Shown in pieces: positions 1 to 31,983 of a stretch of 32,000 nucleotides of DNA (the first letter of the stretch is position 1; each line of letters begins with the position of its first letter). The position numbers and the translations under genes were made by a program. This DNA comes from Candidatus Saccharimonadota bacterium (lineage in GTDB: Bacteria > Patescibacteriota > Patescibacteriia > 2-12-FULL-60-25). The notes under the pieces were generated by a model, which made no database searches, was not told the origin of the DNA, and worked only from the letters and a program-made list of their open reading frames with translations. The DNA lies in the NCBI GenBank assembly GCA_016699205.1, contig CP064964.1, positions 1,020,001-1,052,000 on the forward strand, given 5' to 3'.

Positions 1-80
1 TGTTTGATGACGGCCTCTACGTTGAGGATGTGTTCATTCATGCTTGTCAATTCCTCCACGCAGGGTGATCATGTGCACCT

Positions 81-5473: not shown

Positions 5474-5476
5474 GGT

Positions 5477-8341: not shown

Positions 8342-8344
8342 CAC

Positions 8345-8368
8345 AAAACCCGTCTTGCGACGGGTTTT
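8345..8368. terminator. Bidirectional terminator between convergent genes
   Basis: AAAACCCGTC-ttgc-GACGGGTTTT: A-tract, stem, T-tract. Confidence 0.8.
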
Positions 8369-8379
8369 GATTTGATCGA

Positions 8380-13045: not shown

Positions 13046-13082
13046 GGCAAGTTTCGGCTCGGTCCTTTTGATTGGAGGAAAA

Positions 13083-13919
13083 ATGACGACGACGGATGTC
13101 GCTTTGTGTGATTTGGATGGAACGCATTTCCGCAAAACGCTCGAGGTCTCGCTCGCGGATCATCTGATCTCGAGCGGTCTGGTCGAGGCTTCAGCCTTTG
13201 CCAAGAGCCGCGTGTTCTACGATGCTTGGAAGCGCCGTGATCTCGACTACCCGCAGCTGACCGACGCGCATTGGCGCGAGGTCTCGGAGGCCTTCAAAGG
13301 GCTTCCGGTGGATGCGGTTCGCGATGTCGCACGCCAGATGATCGAGGAGATCGGTGCGAATGTCTACGTCTTCATGCGCGAGCTCATGAAGTCGCTGCAC
13401 GCGTGCAAGTACAAGGTGATCGGTGTCAGCGGTTCCAACCAGGAGACGGTCGAGATCTTCGGCCAAGCTCATGGCTACGACCGCGTGATCGGTACCGAGT
13501 ATGCGCGCGAGAACGGTATCTACACCGGCGGCGTGGCCTATTGGCCGGGCGAGAACAACAAGCACGACATCGCCAAGAAGCTGCTCGCCGAGTACGGCGC
13601 GTCTCCGGAGCGCTCGATCGCCATCGGCGACACGGTCAATGACTTCGGTATGCTGCAGAGCGTCCGTTATCCGATCGCTTTCAACGCGACGCGCGAGCTC
13701 GAGAAGCTCGTACGCGAGTCGTCGAGCGAGTGGAGCCGCAACATCGGTATGGTGACGGAACGCAAGAACCGTCTCCGTATCGAGAAGTTCTATCCCGATC
13801 AGCGTTCTCGGCCGCGCGCCTGCGAGTGCACGCTCGAGGACATGCTGCCCAAGGACGTCGCCGAGGAGCTCAAGAGCCGACTCGGCCCCATGTGCGCCTA
13901 CGATACCAAATGGCCCTAA
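13083..13919 (+). CDS. HAD-superfamily hydrolase (subfamily IB/SerB-like), GC-rich cassette A
   Basis: Motifs CDLDGT, GVSGS, GDTVND. GGAGGA SD lies 4 nt upstream. C/G-ending codons differ from neighbouring genes. Confidence 0.85.
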   Translation: MTTTDVALCDLDGTHFRKTLEVSLADHLISSGLVEASAFAKSRVFYDAWKRRDLDYPQLTDAHWREVSEAFKGLPVDAVRDVARQMIEEIGANVYVFMRELMKSLHACKYKVIGVSGSNQETVEIFGQAHGYDRVIGTEYARENGIYTGGVAYWPGENNKHDIAKKLLAEYGASPERSIAIGDTVNDFGMLQSVRYPIAFNATRELEKLVRESSSEWSRNIGMVTERKNRLRIEKFYPDQRSRPRACECTLEDMLPKDVAEELKSRLGPMCAYDTKWP

Positions 13920-13922
13920 TCC

Positions 13923-13956
13923 AAGGCCCCCGAAACTCGGGGGCCTTGTTCGTTTC
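13923..13956 (+). terminator. G/C-rich terminator of cassette A
   Basis: AAGGCCCCCG-aaact-CGGGGGCCTT followed by GTTCGTTTCT. Confidence 0.8.
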
Positions 13957-13982
13957 TGTACGGGAGCCTAGGCTCGTTTTAT

Positions 13983-15470
13983 ATGCAGATTTTTATCGAG
14001 AAAGGACTTGCGCCAGCCAAAGGCTTTGATCTTTTGGTGTATCCGGTTTTACGCAAGCAATCCTTGGCTAAGCTGGTGGATCGATCTATTGCTGCTTTTG
14101 CCGAGCAGGAAGGTTTTGAGGGCGGAGCTGGCGAGTGGCTTTGCGTCCCAATGCTCAATGGTGAGAAATCGACAAAGATCGCTTTTCTGGGAATGGGGGA
14201 TAAGCGTGGGATTGAGGAAGATTCTTATCGACGATTAGGCGGACAATTGGCTAAGCGCATCAAAGAGGCAAAGGCCAAGAATGTTGCCGTGTCTTGGGAA
14301 TCGGTTGCGTCTCTTGGAGTTTCTGGCCGCGATGCGATGCGCGCGTTTATGGAGGGATTGAGGCTCGGCGGTTATGTTTTTCATGCGTATCATCCGGAAC
14401 ATAAAGAAAAGCATCGCAAGAATGCAGCTAAATCGGTGGGTGTTTTTGTCGATAACACGCTTATCGCGACCGCGATGCAGCGCGGATTGGAGGAGGCCGA
14501 GTCGCTTGCAGCCGGCGTGCATCTGACGCGCGATCTCGTGAATACGCCTTCCATGGATATGGCGCCGCAGCATATGGCGGATGCGGCTGATGAGGTCGCG
14601 CGTTTGTCCAAACGAATTAAAATAAAACATCTCGACAAGTCGAGAATGGAGCGCATGGGAATGGGGGCGGTTCTTTCTGTTGCACAAGGCTCGCTGCATG
14701 AACCGAAAGGCGTGCACTTGATTTATACGCCGTCGGGAAAAGCGAAGCGTAAGATTGTGATTGTTGGAAAGGCTGTGACGTTTGATTCTGGTGGACTTTC
14801 GATTAAGCCGGCAGATGGAATGATGACGATGAAGATGGATATGGCTGGCGGTGCAACGGTTATCGGATTATTTCGTGCGCTCGCTAACATCGAAGTTGAT
14901 GCGGAGGTTCATGGAATTTTTTTCGCGGTCGAGAATATGCCGTCGGGAAGCGCGTATCGACCTGGCGATGTGGTGACGGCGATGGATGGAACGACGATCG
15001 AGATTTTAAATACGGATGCAGAAGGACGTGTGACGCTTGCTGATGCGCTGGCTTATGCGAAGACGCTTGAACCGGACGCTATTATCGATTTAGCGACGCT
15101 GACAGGTGCTTGTATCGTTGCGCTGGGAGAAGAGATTGCTGGTGCGATGGGAAATGATCGAAAGCTTGTGGATAAACTTATTGGTTACGGAAAACAGACC
15201 GGCGAGCCTTTGTGGGAATTGCCGATGCATCCTTCTTATGAAGAGCATGTGAAGTCGAGAATCGCCCATCTCAAGAATATTGGCTCACGAGGTCAAGCGG
15301 GGGCTATTGCTGGTGCAATGTTCTTGAAGCGTTTTGTCGGCGATACGCCTTGGGTACATCTCGATATTGCCGGACCAGCTTACGCGGAACGTGAGTTGCG
15401 TCCGGATTCGCCCCCCGGTGGAACCGGTTTCGGTGTTCGATTATTGATGAGATATCTACAGGGTCTGTAA
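13983..15470 (+). CDS. pepA: Leucyl aminopeptidase (M17)
   Basis: VGKAVTFDSGGLSIKP, NTDAEGRVTLADAL; 495 aa. Confidence 0.93.
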   Translation: MQIFIEKGLAPAKGFDLLVYPVLRKQSLAKLVDRSIAAFAEQEGFEGGAGEWLCVPMLNGEKSTKIAFLGMGDKRGIEEDSYRRLGGQLAKRIKEAKAKNVAVSWESVASLGVSGRDAMRAFMEGLRLGGYVFHAYHPEHKEKHRKNAAKSVGVFVDNTLIATAMQRGLEEAESLAAGVHLTRDLVNTPSMDMAPQHMADAADEVARLSKRIKIKHLDKSRMERMGMGAVLSVAQGSLHEPKGVHLIYTPSGKAKRKIVIVGKAVTFDSGGLSIKPADGMMTMKMDMAGGATVIGLFRALANIEVDAEVHGIFFAVENMPSGSAYRPGDVVTAMDGTTIEILNTDAEGRVTLADALAYAKTLEPDAIIDLATLTGACIVALGEEIAGAMGNDRKLVDKLIGYGKQTGEPLWELPMHPSYEEHVKSRIAHLKNIGSRGQAGAIAGAMFLKRFVGDTPWVHLDIAGPAYAERELRPDSPPGGTGFGVRLLMRYLQGL

Positions 15471-15502
15471 GAGCGTGGTATACTGGGATCGAAAATAAAT
15501 AT

Positions 15503-15757
15503 ATGACTGTCAAAGTGTATTCGACCCCGACTTGCCCTTACTGCAAATTGGCAAAAGATTATCTGAAGGAAAAAAATATCGCTTTTGAGGATATTGATGT
15601 TGCTGCTAATTCTGACTCCGCTCAGGAGATGGTGAAGAAGTCCGGACAAATGGGCGTGCCGGTGCTCGAGATCAATGGACAAATTATTGTTGGATGGAAT
15701 AAGTCGGCGATCGAAGAGGCGCTCGCGACCAAGTCAAAAGCAAAAGTCGCGGCTTAA
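15503..15757 (+). CDS. Glutaredoxin-like protein (NrdH/YruB type)
   Basis: 84 aa with a CPYC active site in a thioredoxin fold and a GVPV cis-Pro region. Confidence 0.88.
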   Translation: MTVKVYSTPTCPYCKLAKDYLKEKNIAFEDIDVAANSDSAQEMVKKSGQMGVPVLEINGQIIVGWNKSAIEEALATKSKAKVAA

Positions 15758-15788
15758 AAAAAACATCCCCGTTCGGGGATGTTTTTTT
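15756..15788. terminator. Bidirectional terminator
   Basis: A8-ACATCCCC-gttc-GGGGATGT-T7. The T-tract overlaps the bcp stop. Confidence 0.85.
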
Positions 15789-16239
15789 AAGCTTCTTTGA
15801 ATGCTTTAAGGATCTCGTTTGTTCGCGGAAGTCCTTGGCGATAGTAGATGATGCGGCCTTCTTGATTGATACCGACAACGGTACGTCTGACAATTTTGGC
15901 GATGAGCAAGTCTTGTTCGGCGTCGTATGCTTTTGCGATTTTGCGGCCTTCATCGACCAAGAGCGGGAAGGGGAATTCGTGTTTATTGCTGAAGGCGGCG
16001 TGAGAGCTCATGTCTGCGGGATTGATTCCAAAGACCTGGATGCCAGCTTTTTCAAAATCGTTCCAGTCATCGCGGATGGCACAGAGCTGAATGGTGCAGC
16101 CCGGAGTTTGGTCGCCAGGGTAAAAAATGAGGACAACCGGGCCTGTGGACAAAGCTGATTCCAATGCAACGATGTTACCGTTTTGGTCCTTCAATGAGAA
16201 GGCTGGAGCCTTGCTGCCGATGCTCGGAGTTTTTCCCAT
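15787..16239 (-). CDS. bcp: Thiol peroxidase Bcp/PrxQ (peroxiredoxin)
   Basis: FYPGDQTPGCTIQLC active-site block; 150 aa. Confidence 0.9.
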   Translation of the reverse strand: MGKTPSIGSKAPAFSLKDQNGNIVALESALSTGPVVLIFYPGDQTPGCTIQLCAIRDDWNDFEKAGIQVFGINPADMSSHAAFSNKHEFPFPLLVDEGRKIAKAYDAEQDLLIAKIVRRTVVGINQEGRIIYYRQGLPRTNEILKAFKEA

Positions 16240-16324
16240 AGGTAGGAGATAGTATGCCGGAAAAACGGAGAACTGTCATGGAGTTTGACGATCGGCTGTT
16301 TTCAAGAAAAGATACCCGTCATCT

Positions 16325-17296
16325 ATGCGCTTTTCCCGATTGTTAGCCGGTTTTGCCTTGGTCGCCCTTATGGGTGCTGGCTGCGATTGGCGCACCTTGC
16401 CGTTAGTGGAGCGTTTTGCGCCTGCATCGACTTCTACCGTTGCACTTAGCGGAACGCCGCTTGAGGCGGCGAAGGCTATTCAGTTCTTGCCTGGCGATAC
16501 ATTTGAAGTGCGACAAACGGTTTTTGGATTCGGTGCCTTTCTTCCTGATTTGCTCGGAAGCAAGGATGGCGTACGTATGGTGACGATTACGCGTTTTGCG
16601 CCAGCGAACTTTGCAAATTTTTCTTGGAGCGTGACGACGGAAAAAGAAACCAAGGCTTCGCTTGATGCACGAGCTGCCTATGAGCGCGACTTGGAACAGA
16701 ATCCTCGTGGAATCGGAGAGAAGGTTGCGGTGCCTCCTGTTCCCCAGATGGAGCGCGTAACGGCGAGTGGAACGGTCATGGATGTTTCTTTGAAGACGCC
16801 GCATAGCGCTTATCTTCCTGCATACTGGAGCCCTGGTTTGAATAGTTTGATGAATGAGAAGAGCGGCATCTGGCTTTCAGAAGATGCGTTTATGGAATTG
16901 GTGCGCACGCGCCACACGATTTTGAATCTTGGTGTTTTTGATGCGGAAGCAAATCAGGCTGCTAAAAATGTTGCTGATTTGAAAACGACGCTGGATCGCC
17001 TACGTAAGCAAGCAAATGAGGATGGCCAGTTTCAGGATCTGACATTGCTTGAGGCAGAGCCGGATTTTATCGAGTATCCGCTAGAAGTGAATGGACGAAC
17101 GGTCATGGTCTCGGCGATCAAAGCGAAGAATTGGTTTGGTGAAGTGATCATCTTGAACAGCGCGCAGAACCCGATGATTCTCAAAGTGACGATGAATCCG
17201 CTTGCAGCGAGTGCGAGCGATGCGATTGGCGGAAATGTTGCCTTGCTCGACAAGATGTACGGATACGAGATCTCCAATATCCAGCTCAAGCGCTAA
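16325..17296 (+). CDS. Hypothetical secreted protein or lipoprotein (323 aa)
   Basis: Signal peptide MRFSRLLAGFALVALMGAGC (lipobox-like). No family recognised. Confidence 0.75.
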   Translation: MRFSRLLAGFALVALMGAGCDWRTLPLVERFAPASTSTVALSGTPLEAAKAIQFLPGDTFEVRQTVFGFGAFLPDLLGSKDGVRMVTITRFAPANFANFSWSVTTEKETKASLDARAAYERDLEQNPRGIGEKVAVPPVPQMERVTASGTVMDVSLKTPHSAYLPAYWSPGLNSLMNEKSGIWLSEDAFMELVRTRHTILNLGVFDAEANQAAKNVADLKTTLDRLRKQANEDGQFQDLTLLEAEPDFIEYPLEVNGRTVMVSAIKAKNWFGEVIILNSAQNPMILKVTMNPLAASASDAIGGNVALLDKMYGYEISNIQLKR

Positions 17297-17327
17297 AAAA
17301 ACTTCCCCGATCGGGGAAGTTTTTTTA
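17295..17327. terminator. Bidirectional terminator
   Basis: A7-CTTCCCC-gatc-GGGGAAG-T7 between convergent genes. Confidence 0.85.
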
Positions 17328-18994: not shown

Positions 18995-19000
18995 GTGATT

Positions 19001-19029
19001 ATATTAGTCTGTAAACTGTAAGCTGTAAA
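19001..19029 (-). promoter_or_regulatory. Candidate era promoter built from the heptamer repeat
   Basis: Minus strand reads TTTACA (19029-19024), 17 nt, TAATAT (19006-19001). The -10 lies 6 nt before the era ATG, with no SD. Confidence 0.45.
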
Positions 19030-19036
19030 CTGTAAA
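19009..19036. repeat. 4x tandem heptamer CTGTAAA/CTGTAAG
   Basis: ctgtaaa ctgtaag ctgtaaa ctgtaaa read directly. The minus strand gives phased TTTACAG units. Confidence 0.9.
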
Positions 19037-19055
19037 ACTAGATAAAAATGCAGAT

Positions 19056-19089
19056 GCCCCGCGCGCCGACAGCTGTCGACGGGCGGGGC
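19056..19089 (-). terminator. G/C-rich hairpin terminator of cassette B
   Basis: GCCCCGC...CGACAGCTGTCG...GCGGGGC. On the minus strand it is followed by ATCTGCATTTTTATC. Confidence 0.6.
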
Positions 19090-19114
19090 AGGTGGTCAGT
19101 CGAGCTGAGCTCGA

Positions 19115-19519
19115 TCAGGGCATGGAGAGGAAGCGGCGAGCGCCTTCTGTTGCTCCGATGATTTCGTTCACGGCGATTTCGCTGTCAGCATCGCACTCCT
19201 GCGTCAGATGTGGCGACGGAACATACATGTTGGCGTAGATGTTCCGCTTTCCGACGTGTACGATCACAGGTCCTGGATGGATCTCTGGCGGTAGAAGATC
19301 GATGATGTAGGCTGGATGTCCGTTGACGTTGAGCCATGCGTGAGGATCACCGCCTGGACGATGGAAGCCGTCTACGGCTACGACACCTGGTACGAGATAC
19401 GCGATGACGCGTATCAAGACGGCGACGGTGGTTTCCTTGCGGAAGCGCTCCGGGATCGACTCGTAGGCCTTGCGGACCTGATCGAGAAGGGTGACGAGGG
19501 AAGGATCGATGTTGCGCAT
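19115..19519 (-). CDS. Hypothetical protein (134 aa), GC-rich cassette B
   Basis: GGAGG SD 8 nt upstream. A TTGACA-like -35 lies at 19568-19563 in an AT-rich spacer. No family recognised. Confidence 0.7.
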   Translation of the reverse strand: MRNIDPSLVTLLDQVRKAYESIPERFRKETTVAVLIRVIAYLVPGVVAVDGFHRPGGDPHAWLNVNGHPAYIIDLLPPEIHPGPVIVHVGKRNIYANMYVPSPHLTQECDADSEIAVNEIIGATEGARRFLSMP

Positions 19520-19571
19520 TCGGCTAACCTCCGAGCGTTAGCTAATCATATTTTATTCTTTATGTCAACGC

Positions 19572-20900: not shown

Positions 20901-20908
20901 GGTCGCAT

Positions 20909-20945
20909 GAAAACACGAAACGGCCGTCTCGAGAAGAGATGGCCG
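20909..20945 (-). terminator. Terminator of the 102-aa cassette gene, abutting the rlmD-like start
   Basis: 10-bp stem CGGCCGTCTC/GAGATGGCCG (one G-U pair), loop GAGAA. Minus-strand U-tract TTTCGTGTTTTC ends 8 nt before the ATG at 20900. Confidence 0.75.
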
Positions 20946-20975
20946 TTCGAAGTAGATAAGAGAAGAGGAGAGGAC

Positions 20976-21284
20976 TCAGGTGTCGGCGCGGAGCGAGCTG
21001 ATGGCCGCCAGGCGAGGCTCGCTCTTGGCGGGCGCGCGGATGACGCGCTTGCGGCGCTTGGGCATACGGCCGGAAACCTCGAGCTCGTAGACCTTGCGGC
21101 CGAGCATGTAGTGCTCGCTGCGCTTGTCCTCGGCGTTGGCATCCACACTGGCTGCGGCGGCGTTGTAGCCGCGCGTCCACTCCGCGTTGGCGGAGAGCTG
21201 CTCGACCTCGTCCTTGATGATGGTCGGGCAGTTGCTATCGTGCCCATAGGGCACCGAACATTTTTCGCACGGGTCTTTGATCAT
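20976..21284 (-). CDS. Hypothetical small protein (102 aa), cassette C gene 2
   Basis: AAGGAG SD 4 nt upstream. N-terminal CEKC...HDSNC, basic KRRKR near the C-terminus. Chosen over overlapping shadow ORFs because of its SD, terminator and balanced composition. Confidence 0.65.
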   Translation of the reverse strand: MIKDPCEKCSVPYGHDSNCPTIIKDEVEQLSANAEWTRGYNAAAASVDANAEDKRSEHYMLGRKVYELEVSGRMPKRRKRVIRAPAKSEPRLAAISSLRADT

Positions 21285-21380
21285 CGCACTCCTTCTTCCC
21301 TTGAAAGATCGGCGGCATGACAGTATGTCGCCGGGGTTACAACGTAATTCTCGAGATATGATCTGTCAATCCAATCTGCC

Positions 21381-21419
21381 ATGAGCAAAGCAAAAGCCGA
21401 TGGTGAGTACCATCGGCTT
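21381..21419 (-). terminator. Terminator of the 77-aa cassette gene
   Basis: 12-bp stem AAAGCCGATGGT-gagt-ACCATCGGCTTT, then TTGCTTTGCTC on the minus strand. Confidence 0.75.
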
Positions 21420-21437
21420 TGGCAGAGGGTCGAGGCT

Positions 21438-21671
21438 TCAGGCCTCGGCGGTGAAGGTGGTGGTGAACGCCGAGGCGTCGGGGAGGTCGATGATGGGTCG
21501 GCCCTCGCGCGCGGCGCGGCCGCGCATGAATGCGAGGTTGGTGCCGCGCGTCCAGATTCCAAGGAAAGTGAGGTTCTTGAGGCCGCAGTGGAACGCGGCC
21601 GTGATGTCGCTCATGTCCGAGTGCTCGAACACGATGTCGTCTTCGAAGGTCTGCCGTTCCATGGGTCGCAT
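21438..21671 (-). CDS. Hypothetical small protein (77 aa), cassette C gene 1
   Basis: GAGGAG SD 5 nt upstream, consensus promoter upstream and own terminator downstream. No family recognised. Confidence 0.65.
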   Translation of the reverse strand: MRPMERQTFEDDIVFEHSDMSDITAAFHCGLKNLTFLGIWTRGTNLAFMRGRAAREGRPIIDLPDASAFTTTFTAEA

Positions 21672-21718
21672 GGGTTCTCCTCGTCCAAGCCGGCGGATTG
21701 TCGGCTAAGGGACTTGAA

Positions 21719-21747
21719 TTTATACTCCATTTAGGCCATTTTGTCAA
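21719..21747 (-). promoter_or_regulatory. Sigma70-type promoter of cassette C
   Basis: Minus strand reads TTGACA (21747-21742), 17 nt, TATAAA (21724-21719). A + strand TATACT (21721-26) overlaps it back-to-back. Confidence 0.6.
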
Positions 21748-21749
21748 CC

Positions 21750-22211: not shown

Positions 22212-22212
22212 T

Positions 22213-23337
22213 ATGCGTGTTTTACTTTTAATATCGGATACGGGAGGCGGACATCGGAGTGCCGCTGTTGCGATAGAAGCGGCGTTGAAACGACTGGATC
22301 CTTCCATCGAGATCATTATCCGCGATGCCCTGATCGAGACATCGACGTGGCCATTGTCCCACTCCCCGCAAATCTATACGTTTGCGATGCGGCATTTACG
22401 TTGGGTTTGGGCATTTAGCTGGTATCTAACCAATGGCAAGCGCCGTGCGCGTTTAATGGCCGATGTGTTTTGGCCGGTTATGAAGCGGCGCATGATTGAA
22501 CTTGTTACCAAAGATCAGTCAGATTTAATCGTGAGCATTCATCCGTTCATGACGCGGGCGGTATCGCGAGCTATCCGGGCTTCCGGGAAACCGATTCCGT
22601 TTAGTATCGTTGTAACGGATTTAGTGACGGGTCATGCAACTTGGTATGACGAGGATGCGGATTGGATTTCTGTGCCGACGGAAGCCGCCAGGGATCGTGC
22701 GATGGCGTTAGGCGTAAAAGCGGAGCGTGTTTCTGTGATGGGGCAGCCGCTGCATCCGCGCGCGATGGAATTGCATCATGATCGTGAAGCGCTGCGAACG
22801 TCTTTTGGTTGGAAAGAGCCGGTTGTGTTGTGTGTTGGCGGGGGAGACGGGATGGGCGGACTTGGAACATATGTGCGCGCGATGGCGGAGGCCAAGATCG
22901 CCGCACGGCTCGTGGTGATTTGCGGAAGAAATATCAAATTACAGAAGGAGCTTGAAGCGGGGTCGTTTTCTATTCCAGTTGAAGTACATGGTTTTGTTTC
23001 AAATTTACCTGAGATGATGTCGGCAGCGGATGTGTTGGTGACCAAAGGAGGCCCGGGATCGATTATTGAAGGATGTCTCGCCGGGCTACCCATGGTGATT
23101 TACGACTATATCCCCGGACAGGAATATGGAAATATGCGATTGGTTTGCGATTCCGGATTTGGAAGTTATGTTCCTGATGCAAAAGCGATGCCGTCGGCGG
23201 TGATGTATTGGTTGGAACATCGCGAGGCGCGACAGGAAGTTGGCAAGCGTGCCAAGCGTTCTGTAACAGCAGATTCCTCGATGAGGATTGCAGCAAAATT
23301 GCTTGATCTCGCGACATCTGTAAGACTCGACAGATAA
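22213..23337 (+). CDS. MGDG-synthase-like glycosyltransferase (GT28 family)
   Basis: MRVLLLISDTGGGHRSAAVAIEAAL N-terminal hallmark, GT-B C-terminal half. Start is 1 nt after the trmH-like stop. Confidence 0.88.
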   Translation: MRVLLLISDTGGGHRSAAVAIEAALKRLDPSIEIIIRDALIETSTWPLSHSPQIYTFAMRHLRWVWAFSWYLTNGKRRARLMADVFWPVMKRRMIELVTKDQSDLIVSIHPFMTRAVSRAIRASGKPIPFSIVVTDLVTGHATWYDEDADWISVPTEAARDRAMALGVKAERVSVMGQPLHPRAMELHHDREALRTSFGWKEPVVLCVGGGDGMGGLGTYVRAMAEAKIAARLVVICGRNIKLQKELEAGSFSIPVEVHGFVSNLPEMMSAADVLVTKGGPGSIIEGCLAGLPMVIYDYIPGQEYGNMRLVCDSGFGSYVPDAKAMPSAVMYWLEHREARQEVGKRAKRSVTADSSMRIAAKLLDLATSVRLDR

Positions 23338-23365
23338 GCGGTTTTTTGTTAGATTGGCTGTTGTT

Positions 23366-24081: not shown

Positions 24082-24082
24082 C

Positions 24083-24424: not shown

Positions 24425-26058
24425 TCACCTGGTTTAAACGCGTCTGGAATGGGGAGACCGACGGCCTTACGGCTGCGGCATTTATTGTCGGTGCTTCCTC
24501 GCTTGCTTCCCGTTTGCTCGGATTGGTACGCGATCGTGTTTTAGCCGGGACATTTGGCGCTGGAGCATCGCTTGATGCGTATTATGCGGCGTTTCGTTTG
24601 CCAGATACGGTTTATAACTTGCTGATTCTTGGTGCCATTTCTGCCGGATTTATTCCGGTTTTTACCGAGTATTTGGAAACCAAGGGAAAGGATGCGGCGG
24701 CTAAGCTCGCGGGACAAGTTTTAACGACGGTCGGAGCCTGTCTTGCTGTTGCGAGTGCTTTTGTGGCGTTATTTGCGCCTGCGATTTTACCGATGATTGT
24801 TCCGGGATTTGATGCGGATACGCTTGCAAAAACGATTGAGCTGACGCGCGTCATGTCGATCTCACCGTTTTTGCTAGGACTTTCAGCAGTGATCGGCGGA
24901 GTGATGCAGTCGATGAAGCGTTATGTCGGTTTTGCGCTTGCGCCGGTGTTTTATAACTTGGGAATTGTTGTCGGAACGATGGTTCTGGCGCCTCACATGG
25001 GTATTTTGGGAGCTGCTTATGGCGTTGTGTTTGGAGCCGTAATGCATTTTTTGGTCCAGGCATCGACTCTAGGTTCTTTCCCACTTGGGAAATTGCCGTG
25101 GCCGTCTTTTTCTTCCAGAGGCGTCAGACGAATTATCGCGTTGATGGGTCCGCGTACCGCGGCTCTCGGTATTTCACAGGTTAATTTGGTTTTTTTGCTG
25201 TCCATCGCTACCACGATTGAGCCAGGTGCCGTTTCTGTTTTTAATCTTGCGAATAATTTGCAGATGTTTCCGGTTGGCTTGATCGGTATCTCGTTTGCGA
25301 TTGCGGCATTTCCGGCCTTATCAAAAGCGCATGCCGTTGAAGATGATGATGGCTATCGCAACGCGCTGTCTGCTGCTGCGCGTAAAGTAATTTTTTTAAT
25401 TATTCCCGCGACGGCTATATTTATTCTGCTTCGTGCGCAGATTGTGCGTTTGGCACTTGGAGACGGCCAATTTAATTGGAATGACACGATTCGTACCGCG
25501 GATGCGCTCGCTTGGTTTGCTGTTTCATTGCTTGCGCAGTCGCTTGTGCCGCTTCTCGCGCGAGCGTTTTATGCGCTGCAGGATACGTGGACGCCATTTT
25601 GGATCAGTGTCGCAGCTGAAGCCGTGCTTATCGGTTTGGCATTTTTTTTACGCGAGCCGTTTGGCGTGATGGGGTTGGCGATGGCATTTTCCGCTGCCGC
25701 TCTTGTGCAGTGTTTGCTGCTTGGATTGTTTTTACGTCGATTATTTGGCCAACTTGGAAAAGGGGAGTCGCTTATTTCCACATACAAAACCGCGATTGCG
25801 ACCGTCGCGCTTTGCACGGCGGCGTTTCCGGTACGCCAATGGTTGGGAACGATTTATAACCTGGAAACGACTTGGCAAGTTGTTTTACAGACAAGCGGAA
25901 CATTGCTGGCAGGCGGATGCGCTTTTTTGCTGACGGCTTGGCTGGTCCGATCGCCGGAATTGGTTGAATTTCGCATGGCAGCAGAGAGACGCTTGTTTAA
26001 AAAGGCTAAAGTTGCCGAGGGGGCTGAGGAAGCGAGCGGCATGGCTAAGACCCATTGA
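24421..26058 (+). CDS. murJ: Lipid II flippase MurJ (MviN)
   Basis: 545 aa, about 14 TM, with the MurJ-typical N-terminal block SRLLGLVRDRVLAGTFGAGASLDAYYAAFRLPD. Confidence 0.92.
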   Translation: MITWFKRVWNGETDGLTAAAFIVGASSLASRLLGLVRDRVLAGTFGAGASLDAYYAAFRLPDTVYNLLILGAISAGFIPVFTEYLETKGKDAAAKLAGQVLTTVGACLAVASAFVALFAPAILPMIVPGFDADTLAKTIELTRVMSISPFLLGLSAVIGGVMQSMKRYVGFALAPVFYNLGIVVGTMVLAPHMGILGAAYGVVFGAVMHFLVQASTLGSFPLGKLPWPSFSSRGVRRIIALMGPRTAALGISQVNLVFLLSIATTIEPGAVSVFNLANNLQMFPVGLIGISFAIAAFPALSKAHAVEDDDGYRNALSAAARKVIFLIIPATAIFILLRAQIVRLALGDGQFNWNDTIRTADALAWFAVSLLAQSLVPLLARAFYALQDTWTPFWISVAAEAVLIGLAFFLREPFGVMGLAMAFSAAALVQCLLLGLFLRRLFGQLGKGESLISTYKTAIATVALCTAAFPVRQWLGTIYNLETTWQVVLQTSGTLLAGGCAFLLTAWLVRSPELVEFRMAAERRLFKKAKVAEGAEEASGMAKTH

Positions 26059-26109
26059 CAGCGAGGTAATAATTTGATTCTATCATCTCTGGCTTGAAAC
26101 GGAGGTTTT

Positions 26110-26589
26110 ATGCCCGAGCATGTTTGGGAATCAAAGCCCGAATACGAGGGTTCGCCTTACGAGAGGCGGAGATGCGCCGTCTGTCATCTCGATGATGGAC
26201 GAAATAAAAACGATGGTACTTGGCTACCGCATGCTGAGAACTTGAAGTGGCGCGTCACGACGCCGTGCATCGAGCCTGTACCCGAGAAGATCAGCTATCA
26301 TCTGCTGGTCGAGGAGATCTTCTCCGCCTTCTCCGACAAGCGAAAGGCCCAGGATCTCCTGAACCGTATCCGCTGTATCGGCGTGCCGGGCAATTGGGCG
26401 GTGGGAATCGTGATCAGCGGCCGAGTGACCTACCCTGAGGTCAAGGAGCCGTTCAAGGACTACGACTACGGTTTTGCCGAGGTGCTGCGCTGGCTGCGGG
26501 CCCGGCAATTCGATCCCTACAGGTATTCGGATCTTCACTATCGAGAACGGCTCGCAGATCGGAGCGATTGCTGCATCGACAGCGACTGA
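26110..26589 (+). CDS. Hypothetical protein (159 aa), GC-rich cassette D
   Basis: GGAGG SD 4 nt upstream and own G/C-rich terminator. Contains a CAVCH motif. No family recognised. Confidence 0.7.
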   Translation: MPEHVWESKPEYEGSPYERRRCAVCHLDDGRNKNDGTWLPHAENLKWRVTTPCIEPVPEKISYHLLVEEIFSAFSDKRKAQDLLNRIRCIGVPGNWAVGIVISGRVTYPEVKEPFKDYDYGFAEVLRWLRARQFDPYRYSDLHYRERLADRSDCCIDSD

Positions 26590-26596
26590 ACAGTGC

Positions 26597-26630
26597 GCCC
26601 GTCCAGAACTCTGGACGGGCGTTCGATTTT
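26597..26630 (+). terminator. G/C-rich terminator of cassette D
   Basis: GCCCGTCCAG-aact-CTGGACGGGC followed by GTTCGATTTT. Confidence 0.8.
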
Positions 26631-26648
26631 CCGCTAGATTGAGGCCCA

Positions 26649-28454
26649 ATGGAACAGTCTCGCATCCGCAATTTTTGCATTATCGCCCATATTGATCACG
26701 GCAAGTCTACGCTTGCCGATCGTTTGCTTGAGATCACGGGAACGATCGAGAAGCGCAAGATGAAGGAGCAATTGCTCGATACCATGGATTTGGAGCGCGA
26801 GCGCGGTATTACGATCAAGCTTCAGCCGGCGCGCATGGCTTACAAGGCCAAGGATGGTACGGAATATGAGCTTAATTTGATCGACACGCCTGGACACGTC
26901 GACTTTAATTATGAAGTCTCGCGTTCACTCGCTGCCGTTGAAGGTGCGGTTTTGCTAGTTGACTCGACACAGGGCGTTCAGGCGCAGACGATCGCTAACT
27001 TGTATTTGGCGATTGAGCAGAATCTGACGATTATCCCGGTGCTGAATAAAATCGATTTGCCAAACTCGGATGTGGAGCGTCGTGCTGCTGAGTTGATGCA
27101 GTTGATTGGCTGCAAGCGTGAAGAGATTTTGTCAGCTTCGGGAAAGTCGGGTGCGGGTGTTCCGGAGATTTTGGAACGTATCGTAAAAGATGTTCCGCCG
27201 CCGCAGGGTTCACGCGAGAAGCCATTCCGCGCGATGATTTTTGATTCCAAGTACGACGACTATCAGGGTGTTGTGGCTTATGTACGTTGTATTGACGGAC
27301 ATCTTGAGAAAAATAGCGGCGTCGCATTCAAAGCTTCCAAGGCGATTGGATCGGCATTAGAGATCGGCTACATGAATCCGCAGCATTTTTCTAGCGGGCA
27401 TATGGAGGCGGGGGATATTGGTTATCTTGTGACGGGTTTGAAAGATATTGGGGCTGTGCGTGTCGGTGATACGGTTGTGAGCGCGTCGCAGGCAAGTGAG
27501 ACGGAGGCGTTGGCCGGTTATAAGGATGCGCGTCCGATGGTATACGCCGGCGTGTTTCCGCAAGAAGGAAATGAATACGAGAAATTGCGCGATGCGATTT
27601 TGAAATTGAAATTGAATGATGCAGCACTGACATTTGAGCCGGAACACTCGATGGCTCTTGGATTTGGTTTCCGCGTTGGTTTGCTTGGCATGCTGCACTT
27701 GGAAATCGTGCAGGAGCGTTTGAGCCGTGAATTCAATATGGACGTCGTTATTACGACGCCGTCTGTAGGATATGAAGTTTTGTTGACGGATGGAACGGAG
27801 ATGTCAGTGAAATCGCCGAGCGGATTTCCTGATCCGTCCCGTATCGAGCTGACGCGCGAGCCTTGGTCGCGAGTCGATATTTTGTGTCCAAAGGAATATT
27901 TGGGAAATGTTATGGCTCTTGTTCAGGATCGACGCGGTATTTACAAGAATACGGAATATCTGGATGTGACTCGTGCGCTTTTGCATTATGAAATGCCGCT
28001 GGCCTCGGTTATCGTCGATTTTTATGACAAACTGAAAGGTGTGACGGCTGGATACGCATCGCTCAACTATGAGTTCATGGATTATCGTGAATCGGATGTG
28101 GTGAAGCTCACGATTATGGTTGCTGATGAGCCCGTAGAAGCTTTGGCGACGCTGCTTCATTCAAGCGAGGCTCAGCGACGCGGCAAGGAAATTGTCGAGA
28201 CCTTGAAGGAAGAGCTGCCGCGGCAGCAGTTCGTGATCAAGCTCCAGGCTTCTGTTGGAGCCAAGATTATTGCGTCGGAAAGAATCTCTGCCTTCCGCAA
28301 AGATGTGACGGGTTACTTGTATGGCGGAGATGTCACGCGTAAAATGAAATTGCTGGAGAAGCAGAAGAAGGGTAAGAAACGTATGTTGGCGCATGGAAAA
28401 GGCTCGGTTGAGATTCCGCCGGATGCGTTTATCAAAGTATTGCGCCGCGGATAG
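26649..28454 (+). CDS. lepA: Elongation factor 4 (LepA)
   Basis: IRNFCIIAHIDHGKSTLADRLL, DTPGHVDF, NKIDL; 601 aa with the LepA C-terminal domain. Confidence 0.95.
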   Translation: MEQSRIRNFCIIAHIDHGKSTLADRLLEITGTIEKRKMKEQLLDTMDLERERGITIKLQPARMAYKAKDGTEYELNLIDTPGHVDFNYEVSRSLAAVEGAVLLVDSTQGVQAQTIANLYLAIEQNLTIIPVLNKIDLPNSDVERRAAELMQLIGCKREEILSASGKSGAGVPEILERIVKDVPPPQGSREKPFRAMIFDSKYDDYQGVVAYVRCIDGHLEKNSGVAFKASKAIGSALEIGYMNPQHFSSGHMEAGDIGYLVTGLKDIGAVRVGDTVVSASQASETEALAGYKDARPMVYAGVFPQEGNEYEKLRDAILKLKLNDAALTFEPEHSMALGFGFRVGLLGMLHLEIVQERLSREFNMDVVITTPSVGYEVLLTDGTEMSVKSPSGFPDPSRIELTREPWSRVDILCPKEYLGNVMALVQDRRGIYKNTEYLDVTRALLHYEMPLASVIVDFYDKLKGVTAGYASLNYEFMDYRESDVVKLTIMVADEPVEALATLLHSSEAQRRGKEIVETLKEELPRQQFVIKLQASVGAKIIASERISAFRKDVTGYLYGGDVTRKMKLLEKQKKGKKRMLAHGKGSVEIPPDAFIKVLRRG

Positions 28455-28478
28455 TACCCTTGATTTCTATCGATATCT

Positions 28479-28577
28479 ATGTTATCTAAACAAGGCCACC
28501 CGCTGATCGTTAAAGTGTTTGCAGGATTCATGATCTTTGCAACCATTTTATTCTTAGTGGGACCGTTCCTGAACTAA
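28479..28577 (+). CDS. Possible 32-aa hydrophobic micro-ORF
   Basis: My translation is MLSKQGHPLIVKVFAGFMIFATILFLVGPFLN. One TM-like stretch; no SD or obvious promoter. Confidence 0.2.
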   Translation: MLSKQGHPLIVKVFAGFMIFATILFLVGPFLN

Positions 28578-28593
28578 TTACACGGAGGATTTC

Positions 28594-28776
28594 GTGTCGC
28601 CAAAAAAAGACGTGGATACGTCCTTGTCCAGTGCATGCGAAGAGGTCGAGGATCGTGAACCGCAACGCCCAGTGTGGTGGCGCGGTCCGACCAAGACCAC
28701 CGGCCTTCTGTCGCCTCGCGAGCTGCGCGAGATGGCGAATGCCGACTGCCGTTTCCTCGACGAGGAAGCGTCGTGA
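28594..28776 (+). CDS. Hypothetical acidic protein (60 aa), cassette E gene 1 (GTG start)
   Basis: GGAGGA SD (28584-28589) 4 nt before the GTG. Its stop overlaps the next start (GTGA at 28773-28776). Confidence 0.55.
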   Translation: MSPKKDVDTSLSSACEEVEDREPQRPVWWRGPTKTTGLLSPRELREMANADCRFLDEEAS

Positions 28777-29045
28777 GCGGCGCCTCGATCACGCCAGAGC
28801 TGCGCGCAGAAATGCGTGAACGCGTCATCCGCTACGAACAGGAGCTGCGTTCGGATCAATCGTTTTGTCAGCCTTCGCAGATCATCGATCGGGATGCCGT
28901 CCCTGTGAAGCTCGGCGACTACACGGAAGAGCAGATCGATCTCATCATCAGGATCGAGCGCTCGCTCGACCATGGCAAGCCTGGCGAGACTGAGGACGAG
29001 AGGCTCGCACGCGCTCTTCAGCGCTACATTCTTGGTGGAATCTGA
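28773..29045 (+). CDS. Hypothetical acidic protein (90 aa), cassette E gene 2 (GTG start)
   Basis: GAGGA lies 6 nt upstream and GTG overlaps the upstream TGA. The track ORF 28674-29045 is trimmed to this coupled start. A terminator follows. Confidence 0.6.
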   Translation: MSGASITPELRAEMRERVIRYEQELRSDQSFCQPSQIIDRDAVPVKLGDYTEEQIDLIIRIERSLDHGKPGETEDERLARALQRYILGGI

Positions 29046-29053
29046 AGCTCTAT

Positions 29054-29093
29054 GACCCCGCTCGACGACTGTCGGTCGGGGTCTTGCTTTTTA
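29054..29093 (+). terminator. G/C-rich terminator of cassette E
   Basis: GACCCCG...CGAC-gact-GTCG...CGGGGTC followed by TTGCTTTTTATC. Confidence 0.75.
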
Positions 29094-29132
29094 TCTTCCA
29101 CGAGGCATGCCGGATTGCGACAATGCTGACTC

Positions 29133-30853
29133 ATGGAAAAGCGTTGGCAGGTGGCGGAATCTTGTCCGCCGGAATTTGTTCAAACTATCGGCCAACCGAT
29201 CGTGGCGCAGTTGTTATGGAATCGCGGAATTCGGGAGCGGGCTGAGGCGGATGCATTTCTCTCGCCGTCCTGGGAGCACCATGTTCATGATGCCCTACAG
29301 TTCCGACAAATGGAGGCGGCGGTGGTACGCGTTTTTGATGCGATGGAAAAAGGGGAGAGGATTACCGTTCATGGTGATTATGATGCGGACGGTGTGACGG
29401 GATCGACCTTGATTATCAATGTTTTGAAAGAGATCGCCAAAAAAATGGGAAGCGAGGCTGTGGTGGATTATTATATTCCGCATCGCGACAAGGAGGGGTA
29501 TGGATTGCATCGCGACACGGTTCCTAAATTGAAAGAAAGGGGAACGGCTTTAATCATTACGGTTGACTGCGGGATTGCCTGTGTTGAGGAGATTGCCTTA
29601 GCAAAAATAGACGGGATCGATACGATTGTCGTTGATCATCATACGTTTGGTGAAACGGTTCCGGACGGACATCTGATTCATCCAGGTTTGCCGGAAGAGA
29701 CGTATCCGTTCAAGCATCTCGCGGCGGTTGGCGTTGCGTATAAATTTGCCTGTGCTTTGCTGACTCGGGCGCGTGAGCGCGGGTTGGATTTTGTGGAGGG
29801 GTGGGAAAAGTGGCTGCTGGATCTTGTGGCGATTGCGACGGTGACGGATATGGTGCCGTTGGTCGGGGAGAATCGCGTGCTTGAGACATTTGGGCTTACG
29901 GTTTTGAATAAAACCAAGAGACCGGGATTTTTGGCGCTATTTGAAATGGCGGGTGTTGAGCCTGGGCAGATTACTTCCGAGACCGTCGGTTTTGCGATCG
30001 GGCCGCGTATTAATGCCGCGGGACGCATGGACCATGCGACGGTTGCGCTTCGACTTTTACTTTCAGAATCGATGGATGAAGCGCGGCTTATCGCGAGAGA
30101 ACTAGAGGATTTAAACAAAGCGAGACAAGACGCGACGAAGAAAATGATGGTGGAGGCGGAAAAAATCGTTGGTGATGATGTGAAGGATAATGTGATTGTG
30201 GTTTGGAAAGAGAATTGGTCGCCGGCTCTTGTCGGACTCGTTGCTGGACGATTTATGGAGAAGTTTTCTCGACCGGTGGTCGCTGTCGGAAAGCATGGGG
30301 ATCATTGGATTGGGTCGGGGAGATCGATATCGACTTATAATATTACGGATGCCGTGAAAGCTTCTGGTGAAGGAATTCTGACAAGAAGCGGTGGTCATGT
30401 GCAGGCTTGCGGATTTGCATTGACAGACGGTGATCAGTTGTCAGTTTTCAGTGATCGGTTAAAGAGCATGCGCGATCGATTTCTGCCGAAGAGCTGACGC
30501 CGTTGCTTTCTATCGATGCAGAAATGACGCTGGCTGCGGTTGCGATGGATGTGGCGGAAGCGGTGAAGCGATTGGAACCATATGGAATGGGAAATGCGCT
30601 TCCGATTTTTTTATCCAAGCGCTGCAAGATTCTTTCTTCCGACACGATGGGTTCGACGGGAAATCATTTACGGATGCAGCTTGCGGATGGTTCGGGGAGA
30701 GCGGTGAAGGCGGTTGGTTTTAAGATGGGTGGTCGAATTCTTGAAGCTTTGATGGGGAAAGAGATTGATGTTGTTTATAATCTTTCGATTAATGAGTGGA
30801 ATGGGCGGAGGACGGCGGAATGTCGATTGATTGATTTTCGGGCGAGCGCATAA
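29133..30853 (+). pseudogene. recJ: Single-stranded-DNA exonuclease RecJ split by a 1-nt frameshift (or a sequencing error)
   Basis: DHH motifs HGDYDADGVTG, VDCG, VVDHH in 29133-30497. The C-terminal part (SAEELTPLLSIDAEMTL...EPYGMGN) continues in frame 2, open from 30455. One extra T in TTT at 30480-30482 would give one ~573-aa ORF. Confidence 0.88.
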
Positions 30854-30882
30854 ATAGAAAATGCTTTGCGTTAGCCAAGAAT

Positions 30883-30911
30883 TTGACAAAATAGCTGTTT
30901 TTTAGTATAGT
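30883..30911 (+). promoter_or_regulatory. Near-consensus sigma70 promoter of cassette F
   Basis: TTGACA (30883-30888), 17 nt, TATAGT (30906-30911). Confidence 0.65.
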
Positions 30912-30917
30912 TGATCG

Positions 30918-30946
30918 TTAGTCAAAATTTTCACTATTTTGGCTAA
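30918..30946 (+). promoter_or_regulatory. Palindromic operator or 5' stem-loop at about +1 of the cassette F promoter
   Basis: TTAGTCAAAAT-N7-ATTTTGGCTAA (10/11 complementary). A third half-site, TTAGCCAAGAAT, lies at 30871-30882 next to the -35. Confidence 0.5.
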
Positions 30947-31061
30947 TTTTAGTTCGGAAGTGGTCCTTGGAGGTCGACTTGTGGGCGCGGATGGTCTGTG
31001 TCCATGATTGAGTGCCTTTCAAAGGACGCGGTTCACGGCAATACCGTGACGGGAGGCTGAT

Positions 31062-31925
31062 ATGAGCTGGAGCACACGTAGTCCTCTGGAAGCGGCGGCG
31101 CTATCGAGGGCGGAGACCGCAGAAAAGACTTACGAAGCAGATCAGCGCTATCGTCTGAGCCAGCAGGTTCCGATGGCGAGTGAATCTGGCCTGAGAAGCG
31201 AGTTCGACCAGGGGAGAAAAGATTTTCTCAAAATGAACTTCGATGACTATCTTCACAGGATCGTTGTCGATATCGATGCGGATCTCCCTACCTTGCGCCG
31301 TATCGTCCGATGTCCATTTCACCCCCCGACCAAGAATGGGTTCGGCTGCGATCAGCCATGGTTTGAGAATGACGAATTCTTTTCTTTGAGAGGATATCGT
31401 TACAATTGGACTCGGCACAGATCCTGCAAGGATGAGGTTCTGTACAAGTCAAACCCTGATCGCGACTGCGCGCCTCATCTTGATTGCGATCAGAATCGCG
31501 ATGTGTTCATTGCGCCGGTTCCCCACCACTTTTTGGCTTCTGGGATTTGCGATGTCTTGGAGCCTCTTGCTGCCTATGCAGACCGGCGAGGATTCCGGTT
31601 TGCAATGGAGTTGGAGATGGCCGCATTTGCGGCACAGCACCCTTGGTCTGTGAACAACGGGAATTCGATCATCGCGCTCGGCGCATCCAGGCTGCACTCA
31701 TCGCCGTACTCATTTCGTCATGAAGATGTGGATGTCTATCTTGAGATCCACAATGAGGGTGCTATTCGCCACCTTCACCGGATGAGCGGCCCATCGCTTG
31801 ATCGGCATTGTGATGCTGTCCGTCGTTTTGCAAACGACAGCTTGAACTGTGGTCTCGTGTACCGTAATCATGTCCTGCAAGAAAACGACCGAATTCTCTT
31901 GGTCAAGAAGACGGGTCCGTTGTAG
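31062..31925 (+). CDS. Hypothetical Cys/His-rich protein (287 aa), cassette F
   Basis: GGGAGG SD 5 nt upstream, about 140-nt leader, own terminator. No family recognised. Confidence 0.7.
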   Translation: MSWSTRSPLEAAALSRAETAEKTYEADQRYRLSQQVPMASESGLRSEFDQGRKDFLKMNFDDYLHRIVVDIDADLPTLRRIVRCPFHPPTKNGFGCDQPWFENDEFFSLRGYRYNWTRHRSCKDEVLYKSNPDRDCAPHLDCDQNRDVFIAPVPHHFLASGICDVLEPLAAYADRRGFRFAMELEMAAFAAQHPWSVNNGNSIIALGASRLHSSPYSFRHEDVDVYLEIHNEGAIRHLHRMSGPSLDRHCDAVRRFANDSLNCGLVYRNHVLQENDRILLVKKTGPL

Positions 31926-31944
31926 GTTGAGCGTTTCTACTTGG

Positions 31945-31983
31945 CAGTCCGTACCGACTTACTGGTACGGGCTGTTTTCGTTT
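31945..31983 (+). terminator. Terminator of cassette F
   Basis: 11-bp stem CAGTCCGTACC/GGTACGGGCTG, 8-nt loop, then TTTTCGTTT. Confidence 0.8.

Follow-up and report, generated by a model that had tools for sequence, protein, structure and literature searches.

Shine-Dalgarno-led orphan gene units with a maintained codon usage between housekeeping genes of a Saccharimonadota chromosome

We analyzed a 32,000-nucleotide stretch of the chromosome of a Candidatus Saccharimonadota bacterium (assembly GCA_016699205.1, contig CP064964.1, positions 1,020,001 to 1,052,000), referred to below as the window. The source genome, of about 1.08 Mb and roughly 1,100 genes, belongs to the Candidate Phyla Radiation (CPR; Patescibacteria), and the proteins of the window are QQR60786.1 to QQR60809.1 (locus tags IPH19_053xx). 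Twenty-eight genes, 21 on the + strand and seven on the − strand, form a backbone in which six spots, flanked by housekeeping genes, are occupied by genes of another kind. An earlier note on this DNA, made from its letters alone, had picked out these spots by their composition, their Shine-Dalgarno (SD) motifs and their terminal hairpins. It had read their genes as individually acquired and un-ameliorated, or as one dispersed accessory set, the donor being of higher GC and SD-using. Eight genes (A, B, C1, C2, D, E1, E2 and F), here called unit genes, make up the six spots; their features are given in Table 1.

Table 1. Units of the window and their signals. Coordinates are window positions; promoter-like sites are consensus matches only; aa, amino acids; nt, nucleotides; UTR, untranslated region; GC3, G+C content at third codon positions.
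Unit or gene	Extent	Strand	Promoter-like site	SD motif	Coding sequence and product	Terminator hairpin
A	13046..13982	+		GGAGG 13074-13078	13083-13919, 278 aa, HAD-IB hydrolase	13922-13948
B	18995..19571	-	TTGACA (-35) 19563-19568	GGAGG 19528-19532	19115-19519, 134 aa, orphan	19055-19090, palindromic
C, overall	20901..21749	-			two genes, C2 then C1	
C2		-	TTGACA-17-TATAAA (21742-21747 / 21719-21724)	GAGGAG 21677-21682	21438-21671, 77 aa	21390-21423
C1		-	TTGACA-17-TACGTT, in the spacer	AAGGAG 21289-21294	20976-21284, 102 aa	20919-20947
D	26054..26648	+	TTGACA 26054-26059, overlapping the murJ stop	GGAGG 26101-26105	26110-26589, 159 aa	26596-26621
E, overall	28455..29132	+	TTGATT-17-TATCTA near 28460-28488; 5′ UTR about 105 nt		two genes, E1 and E2	29054-29083
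E1		+		GGAGGA 28584-28589	28594-28776, 60 aa, GTG start	
E2		+		GAGGA 28762-28766	28773-29045, 90 aa, GTG start, overlaps E1 by 4 nt	
F	30854..31983	+	TTGACA-17-TATAGT 30883-30911	GGGAGG 31051-31056	31062-31925, 287 aa, Cys/His-rich	31943-31976
Seventh unit of the same type, start only	1..41	-		GGAGGA, -9.3 kcal/mol (L174)	97-aa orphan, mostly left of the window; in L174 8504-8797 (-), GC3 0.67	

The units share one predicted layout: a TTGACA-type −35 box, a 17-nt spacer, a TAnnnT −10 box, a leader of 25-150 nt, the open reading frame (ORF), and on its 3′ side a perfect or near-perfect GC stem of 12-18 bp with an interrupted T-tail. Promoter-like sites were found for B, C1, C2, D, E and F, that of F being the best promoter match in the region, and no promoter match was located for A. 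The start of A was placed at the ATG in Table 1, which corrects a TTG at 13068. Terminators were found for all units. A hairpin scan thus confirmed that each unit ends in its own GC-rich stem, and the top three terminator-like sites between 12.5 and 32 kb were the hairpins of A, D and F. The units lie exactly between conserved genes, and within the window there is no integrase or transposase gene, no direct repeat flanking a unit and no repeat common to the units, just as had been described. The sole tRNA of the window (5131-5204) is far from the units.

SD strength was expressed as the energy of the duplex with a presumed anti-SD sequence, ACCUCCUUA; neither the window nor the fetched loci contain rRNA. 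Seven unit starts gave −8.3 to −10.3 kcal/mol (A −9.3, B and D −10.2) and the start of E2, which is translationally coupled, gave −5.9, while all 28 backbone starts were at −5.9 kcal/mol or weaker. The contrast in translation signals reported from inspection by eye is therefore real. Nearly every orthologue of a unit gene retains its GGAGG-type motif 4-9 nt before the start codon, amid diverging UTR and protein sequences. In the backbone of related genomes about 3 of some 160 starts reach −8 kcal/mol, for example that at 2503 in L167 (−12.3; handles beginning with L denote related loci and genomes).

Backbone genes carry a different signal. A TANNNT motif that ends 6-10 nt ahead of the ATG was seen in 10 of 28 backbone genes, where chance would give about 2; no unit gene has one (0 of 8). 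Such leaderless-type −10 boxes are TATACT of ftsE, TAGATT of lepA, TAGGCT of pepA and TAATAT of era (6 nt before ATG); other backbone genes overlap or abut their upstream neighbor. Judged by these predicted boxes, the backbone is largely leaderless, with operon-first genes leaderless and downstream genes coupled, and this would account for its lack of SD motifs. With a leaderless backbone and leadered units, an SD marks leadered genes and not foreign ones. SD-independent initiation is, moreover, a known trait of the group, given that an anti-SD motif is reported for only 48% of Parcubacteria (PMC9297842).

Mean GC3 was 0.506 ± 0.034 in the 21 backbone genes of the + strand and 0.575 ± 0.055 in the seven of the − strand. 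Six unit genes are outliers by more than 5 standard deviations (sd): A (0.80), C1 (0.87), C2 (0.88), D (0.70), E1 (0.69) and E2 (0.69). B (0.66, +1.5 sd) and F (0.57, +1.9 sd) are weak outliers in the window; B orthologues have values of 0.68-0.78. The GC-rich composition ascribed to all six spots thus holds for seven of the eight genes (GC3 0.66-0.88), F being no more than marginal, and the list of ORFs confirmed that multi-frame shadow ORFs pile up at all six spots. First and second codon positions (GC1, GC2) of the units match the backbone, so that the shift is limited to third positions, and three-base periodicity is strong, with GC3 far above GC2. The enrichment ends at the start and stop codons of the unit ORFs: the 5′ UTRs have 39-50% GC, like backbone intergenic regions, and the adjoining ends of flanking genes are not enriched. 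Its confinement to ORFs is evidence against a regional GC-biased gene conversion or the signature of a donor, and favors selection acting on the synonymous sites of these ORFs.

The backbone itself has a strand skew at third positions. Genes of the + strand show G3 0.34, T3 0.33, C3 0.16 and A3 0.17, and those of the − strand the complement. The C3 values of + strand units are 0.28-0.44, which is 2- to 3-fold higher than in the backbone and 5-12 sd above it (even F has 0.28 versus 0.16), and purine and pyrimidine third positions both move towards G/C on either strand. Over the window the cumulative GC skew climbs monotonically; the G+T-rich strand carries 21 of the 28 backbone genes. The DEAD-box helicase gene at 8380-9759 (−) has the highest GC3 of the backbone, 0.65. 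It was considered as a native gene with a unit-like C-ending bias and rejected, its bias being mostly the strand skew of − strand genes. Its Ser/Arg/Gly-rich, probably disordered tail explains a 60-65% GC peak at 8250-8850, which the earlier note had not listed.

A glycosyltransferase gene at 22213-23337 (MGDG-synthase-like) provides an internal comparison. It occurs only in this species and in L170 and is absent from L167, L176, L177, L179, L180 and L087. Its GC3 is 0.51, and it is preceded by GAGG only, with no strong SD. This gene is younger than the units and yet backbone-like, which indicates that accessory status does not in itself produce the unit signature.

Closer relatives were reached through homologues of A, D and B and a metagenome scan, a LepA scan of GTDB representatives having given at most 62% identity. 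Near-identical regions were found in L002 (98.0% identity to the window), L001 (96.0%) and L003/L004 (92%). Backbone proteins of L170, L165 and L167 are about 95%, 85% and 80% identical to those of the window, and LepA identity is 93% in L176, 90% in L180, 83% in L177 and 76% in L179; the backbones of these seven genomes have 48-56% GC. In total, ten clade genomes with LepA identity of 76-100% were fetched; L087, L086, L088 and L091, with LepA identity of 63-71%, served as outgroups. At least five assemblies made independently (JGI, NCBI, ENA and Logan) show the arrangement of the window, which excludes misassembly, a chimera included. These genomes occur in activated-sludge samples.

Distant relatives keep the gene order prx, era, rlmD, trmH, GT2, murJ, lepA, recJ. 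L087 (LepA identity 69%, 38% GC) has nothing in its short era|rlmD, rlmD|trmH and lepA|recJ gaps; its GC3 lies uniformly at 0.27-0.35, and none of its starts has an SD. L086, L088 and L091, in which one or another of these junctions is likewise short and empty, are without D and/or E. Relative to these genomes, therefore, the units are insertions. In all ten clade genomes, however, the unit junctions are occupied by homologues or by genes of the same type with the same signature. In the seven relatives from L170 to L179 listed above, most occupants are recognizable homologues; GC3 is 0.62-0.92, and SD energies are −8 to −12.3 kcal/mol in nearly all occupants, the exceptions being two C1 orthologues (−5.8) and the C-slot gene of L179 (−1.5).

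A, B and C were found in L170, L165 and L167, and C, D and E in L176, L177 and L180; L179 has B, a C-slot gene, D and an E-slot gene. Orthologues of A are located at VKOR|pepA or SNase|pepA in L170, L165 and L167. Those of C lie at rlmD|trmH in L170, L167, L176 and L177, with an SD-led small gene of the same type in L179 and L180. Orthologous E pairs are present at lepA|recJ in L176 and L180, and L177 has a remote E2 homologue (28% identity, E 0.03). Overall, A to E occur at the same junctions down to 76% LepA identity, with B missing in L176, and only F is patchy. The wording "individually acquired" is contradicted by the same genes, loci and composition in L170, L165, L167, L176, L177, L179 and L180, whereas "one dispersed accessory gene set" fits, as B, C, D and E are found together throughout the clade. 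Such recurrence in the lineage, with gene, locus and composition all alike, is the outcome that the earlier note had itself named as incompatible with its reading.

F is confined to this species; in L176, L177 and L179 recJ is followed directly by the RNase H gene. In L001 and L175 the F slot contains a divergent 159-aa gene instead. The two alternatives agree in hairpin-plus-SD layout, have homologous, though diverged, 5′ UTRs and do not differ in their terminator; their proteins are related (E 0.004-0.008). L003 has, between recJ and F, an extra gene at 5183-5563 (GC 0.41) for a 126-aa, coiled-coil-like protein with (D/E)(V/L)GSLK(S/T) repeats.

The age of the units was assessed from synonymous (dS) and nonsynonymous (dN) substitutions per site. 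Comparison of the window with L170, L165 and L167 gave dS values of 0.47, 1.01 and 1.01 for A, with dN/dS of 0.16-0.24, and of 0.3-0.9, 0.6-2.3 and 1.1-2.3 for the backbone. The identity of A decreases in the backbone order (86 > 73 > 69%), and this, with the low dN/dS, indicates vertical descent under purifying selection. Third-position identity between the window and L167 was 0.56 for A (about 0.36 expected from its base composition) and 0.44-0.58 for the backbone (about 0.28 expected); synonymous turnover of A is thus about as complete as that of the backbone. Despite this saturation, GC3 of A is 0.79-0.81 in four lineages. C1 orthologues have 0.80-0.90 at 26-47% amino acid identity, and identity of unit proteins across the lineage falls to 28-48%. 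As the backbone regime is near an equilibrium of about 0.5, a deviation of GC3 would have decayed, and some force must therefore maintain it. The term "un-ameliorated" cannot be kept for genes whose GC3 is held with synonymous sites saturated, and the signature of a high-GC donor is unlikely given backbone-like GC1 and GC2 and a shift that stops at ORF boundaries; the use of an SD is not a foreign trait. Polarization of third-position changes by parsimony gave an excess of G/C-to-A/T changes in the units; it was discarded, because saturated GC-rich outgroups create such a bias.

Proteins of the units diverge rapidly, with dN/dS of 0.16-0.65. Between the window and L170, B is 47% identical and Era 97%; D is 35-48% identical in L177 and L179, where LepA is 76-83% identical. 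Within the species B exists as two alleles with 71% amino acid identity, one in the window and L002 and the other in L001 and L175. Their central part has dS of 1.10 and dN/dS of 0.30 and their flanks have dS of 0.17-0.26, a pattern that identifies them as old alleles moved by recombination and not as the product of a burst of positive selection. D of L175 is a mosaic at the DNA level, its 5′ half being 70-77% and its 3′ part 95-97% identical to that of the window. The 59.6% identity of the D protein in L175 was not taken at face value, since it is partly an artefact of indel errors in the L175 assembly. For D, E and F, similarity between the window and L003 exceeds that of the flanking murJ, lepA and recJ; the whole region is mosaic, beyond the units alone.

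When the unit proteins and two neighbors were searched against Pfam, PHROGs, PADLOC and NCBIfam, only A was matched. Its assignment as a HAD hydrolase was confirmed by PF12710 (68.2 bits, cut-off 27) and TIGR01488 (55.2 bits, cut-off 45), with TIGR01490 at 88.7 bits, below its cut-off of 98.3. The N-terminus of A reads CDLDGTHF (DxDxT motif I), and a C-terminal extension of about 70 aa is present. The remaining products are orphans, as had been supposed: sequence and profile searches of the PDB gave no match for them. Pattern scans of IMG/VR for A, D and F and a tblastn search of 50,697 phage records with B, D and F revealed no relatives. Among 5.8 billion proteins the B family comprises 10 clusters and the D family 13; a profile search of 1.84 billion proteins gave 43 representative clusters for D. 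AlphaFold2 (AF2) models based on 10-12 input sequences had predicted local distance difference test (pLDDT) scores of 88.5 for B and 81.5 for D, and predicted template modeling (pTM) scores of 0.84 and 0.76. Foldseek found no PDB match for either at E ≤0.001, D giving only local matches of zinc-ribbon size. D has four conserved Cys, C1 contains a CxxC...H...CP motif, and WTRGxNxA is common to C1 and C2. Apart from this short motif and the relation of F to its 159-aa alternative, comparison of all unit proteins with each other revealed no common family. E1 and E2 overlap by 4 nt, as in a type II toxin-antitoxin pair, but gave no Pfam, PADLOC, NCBIfam or PHROG match. We conclude that the unit proteins are real, folded, clade-restricted and fast-evolving. 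The old, balanced alleles of B and the turnover of F suggest a role in interaction or conflict.

Several units have additional features in their untranslated parts. The 3′ arm of the D hairpin (TGGACG) is located 17 nt upstream of the TAGATT box of the leaderless lepA (26596-26648), so the D terminator seems to double as the predicted −35 box of lepA; conservation of this segment in the clade exceeds that of the D coding sequence. A motif preceding the SD is common to the 5′ UTRs of C2 (21683-21691 (−), CCGCCGGCTTGGACGAGGAG) and D (26091-26099 (+), TCTCTGGCTTGAAACGGAGG; in L175 at 9981, CCTCCGGCTTGGACCGGAGG). In D it folds as an anti-SD/SD hairpin (z −3.2 versus shuffled sequences), and it may be a shared translational control element or reflect common ancestry of the UTRs. 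The F leader (30918-31061, about 150 nt) folds at −51.7 kcal/mol (z −3.3 versus shuffled sequences) and has no Rfam match; Rfam searches, at gathering thresholds and at E 0.5, returned only tRNA-Gln. Between the B terminator and the era promoter the heptamer TTTACAG (CTGTAAA on the + strand) is repeated four times in tandem at 19009-19036. The repeats are kept in L001, L002 and L175 and are degenerate in L170, L165 and L167.

Thus the anatomy of the units, their age, conserved position, vertical inheritance and maintained composition, and the absence of a mobilizing element are firmly supported. We propose, with a probability of roughly 0.55, that the units are a clade-specific, co-inherited, "moron-like" set of leadered, SD-dependent and self-contained genes, the codon usage of which is held by selection. 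The ancestor of what is now a family-level clade (LepA identity ≥76%) would have gained the units a single time, by entry or by origin in place, and they would thereafter have been inherited vertically at fixed junctions, only the F slot turning over between strains. Alleles of B and D would have been swapped by homologous recombination through the conserved flanks. The G/C-ending codons would represent an equilibrium produced by a force acting on synonymous sites of the unit ORFs alone, and not a relic of a donor; our inference is that selection on codon usage, tied to a high-flux translation driven by SDs, provides this force.

A number of observations weigh against this proposal. The anti-SD was presumed and does not derive from the 16S 3′ end of this genome, and the SDs of the units are accordingly predicted ones. 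High expression of the unit genes, and the status of G/C-ending codons as optimal, are likewise what we infer. Highly expressed proteins usually evolve slowly, and the unit proteins evolve 2- to 20-fold faster than their neighbors (dN of B 0.45, of era 0.02). A peroxiredoxin and a pilin-like gene, for which good expression might be anticipated, use codons as the backbone does. An SD with hardly any GC3 enrichment is seen in F and in the 159-aa gene downstream of it, so the two traits are separable. Finally, a member of the D family is present in a different context in another CPR genome, L178, where, of 21 genes, only this one and an unknown neighbor have a strong SD; ancient mobility, at least of the D family, is therefore real.

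The last observation could be explained by a single ancient import from a GC-rich, SD-using organism or element, with codon usage kept because it was favored in the recipient. It would agree with the joint appearance of B, C, D and E at one node, with an SD still leading the D homologue of L178, and with the membership of A in a ubiquitous enzyme superfamily. No donor was found, however: homologues with visible context are all in CPR-type small-genome loci, and the others carry no taxonomy. GC1 and GC2 are not donor-like, and an import would still need a maintaining force, so that it differs from the reading proposed here in origin only. We regard it as unlikely, while granting that it deserves consideration.

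A different cause of the bias would be GC-biased gene conversion at recombination hot spots, which in place of selection would drive third positions to G/C and speed up protein change. The mosaic alleles of B and D, the excess of dS in the center of B, the closeness of D and E to L003 beyond that of their flanks, and a shift from A/T to G/C in purines and pyrimidines alike would all be expected under it. Crossovers, however, must occur in the 5′ UTRs, spacers and ends of flanking genes, and these are not GC-enriched; the entire region is mosaic, and A, whose GC3 is among the highest, is not hypervariable. Gene conversion is in our opinion a quite improbable explanation of the whole, although it and a single ancient import are possible contributors to the origin and to part of the bias.

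Recent, independent imports from a higher-GC, SD-using donor, as first envisaged, would readily account for atypical composition and SDs, for orphan proteins, for junctions that are empty in distant relatives and for an F slot that differs between strains 96% identical. For A to E this is contradicted by the same junctions, GC3 and SDs in genomes with backbone dS of 1-2.3 to the window, and homology argues against unrelated insertions having occurred independently in the relatives. GC1, GC2 and UTRs are native-like, A branches in the order of the backbone, searches for mobility genes, repeats and phage or viral relatives were negative, and the younger glycosyltransferase gene has backbone composition. 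Such imports are highly improbable. An artefact (chimeric assembly, a GC-rich structured RNA or spurious ORFs), suggested by the shadow ORFs and by D and F UTRs that fold better than shuffles (z about −3.2 to −3.3), has next to no chance in view of at least five independent assemblies, three-base periodicity, the dN/dS values, confident AF2 folds and the lack of an Rfam match.

The selection-maintained, co-inherited set favored here can be extended, as a speculation that we hold to be decidedly doubtful, to two translation channels: a leaderless, SD-free one for the conserved core and an SD channel reserved almost wholly for a dispersed, co-inherited regulon of clade-specific small proteins with novel folds and a codon usage kept by selection. 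Global gating of the second channel, for example by 30S versus 70S initiation or by UTR hairpins masking the SD, could then operate at contact with a host or phage.

Some further observations concern neighboring genes. The recJ gene is split by a frameshift (29133-30497 and 30503-30853; site 30440-30503), at which the window has AAA and L001 AAAA (ggttaaagagc versus ggttaaaagagc). L001, L002 and L175 have an intact recJ of 573 aa, and the split most likely stems from a homopolymer error in a long-read assembly rather than from decay of the gene. Strains differ in the stretch that follows tRNA-Gln(UUG) (window 5131-5476): there is no extra gene in the window or L174, a 674-aa gene (GC 0.42) in L172/L173 at 14075-16099, and a 421-aa gene with a DUF1801 gene in L170 at 397-2186. 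This stretch may be a tRNA-linked insertion hot spot. Genes of the bAvd / 23S-rRNA-IVP family, accessory proteins of diversity-generating retroelements, were found at differing junctions in L002 (16472-16813 (−), RNase H|pilM) and L165 (4908-5273 (+), YgjP|DEAD); both have a GC of 0.42, and the family is absent from the window.

Atypical composition combined with "foreign" translation signals is the standard fingerprint of recent horizontal transfer. In the present case the fingerprint is carried by long-resident, vertically inherited genes, beyond the memory of synonymous sites, and the usual inference would be wrong. For CPR biology, the units define a small set of SD-dependent, apparently strongly expressed orphans in a genome that otherwise initiates without SDs; no description of such a set with its own codon usage was found for CPR in the literature searched. 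At least two of the proteins (B and D) have confident predicted folds lacking a PDB match. The units are candidates for lineage-specific functions in episymbiosis, conflict or regulation, and are suited to the study of SD-dependent and leaderless initiation coexisting in reduced genomes.

Phage morons, described by Hendrix and colleagues, are reportedly autonomous promoter-ORF-terminator units between conserved genes, often of deviant base composition. The units resemble them in combining a compact ORF with its own putative sigma-70-type promoter and factor-independent terminator, in lying between genes that are adjacent in relatives, and in their composition. They differ in residing in a cellular CPR chromosome with housekeeping genes, not a prophage, as flanks, in keeping their position throughout a family-level clade and not occurring sporadically, and in having no phage homologues. 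Integron cassettes, too, are compact and hold a single ORF, with an imperfect inverted repeat at the end of each. The units, by contrast, are dispersed and have promoters of their own, and no intI is present among the genes of the window; their hairpins are mutually unrelated and have T-rich tails, which identifies them as terminators and not attC sites.

Like orphan genes or genomic "islets", the units are short and fast-evolving, lack homologues beyond a narrow clade and are inserted between core genes. Orphans are usually AT-rich and poorly expressed-looking, whereas the units combine a high GC3 with strong SDs, strong terminators and folds predicted with confidence. The "predicted highly expressed" and "alien" gene classes of Karlin are defined by codon usage plus SD strength, and the units are similar as a minority gene set in which a strong SD goes together with a codon bias that is distinct and maintained. 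They are unlike Karlin-type highly expressed genes in the fast evolution of their proteins; walks upstream (10 kb) and downstream of the window met no ribosomal-protein or EF-Tu gene with which their bias could be compared. Closest in translation signals are genomes with mixed leaderless and SD-led genes (Actinobacteria, Deinococcus) and SD-poor or anti-SD-lacking Parcubacteria (PMC9297842), in which most starts are SD-free and a leadered minority has a canonical SD. What sets the present genome apart from these is that its SD-led minority consists almost only of clade-specific orphans with a codon usage of their own.

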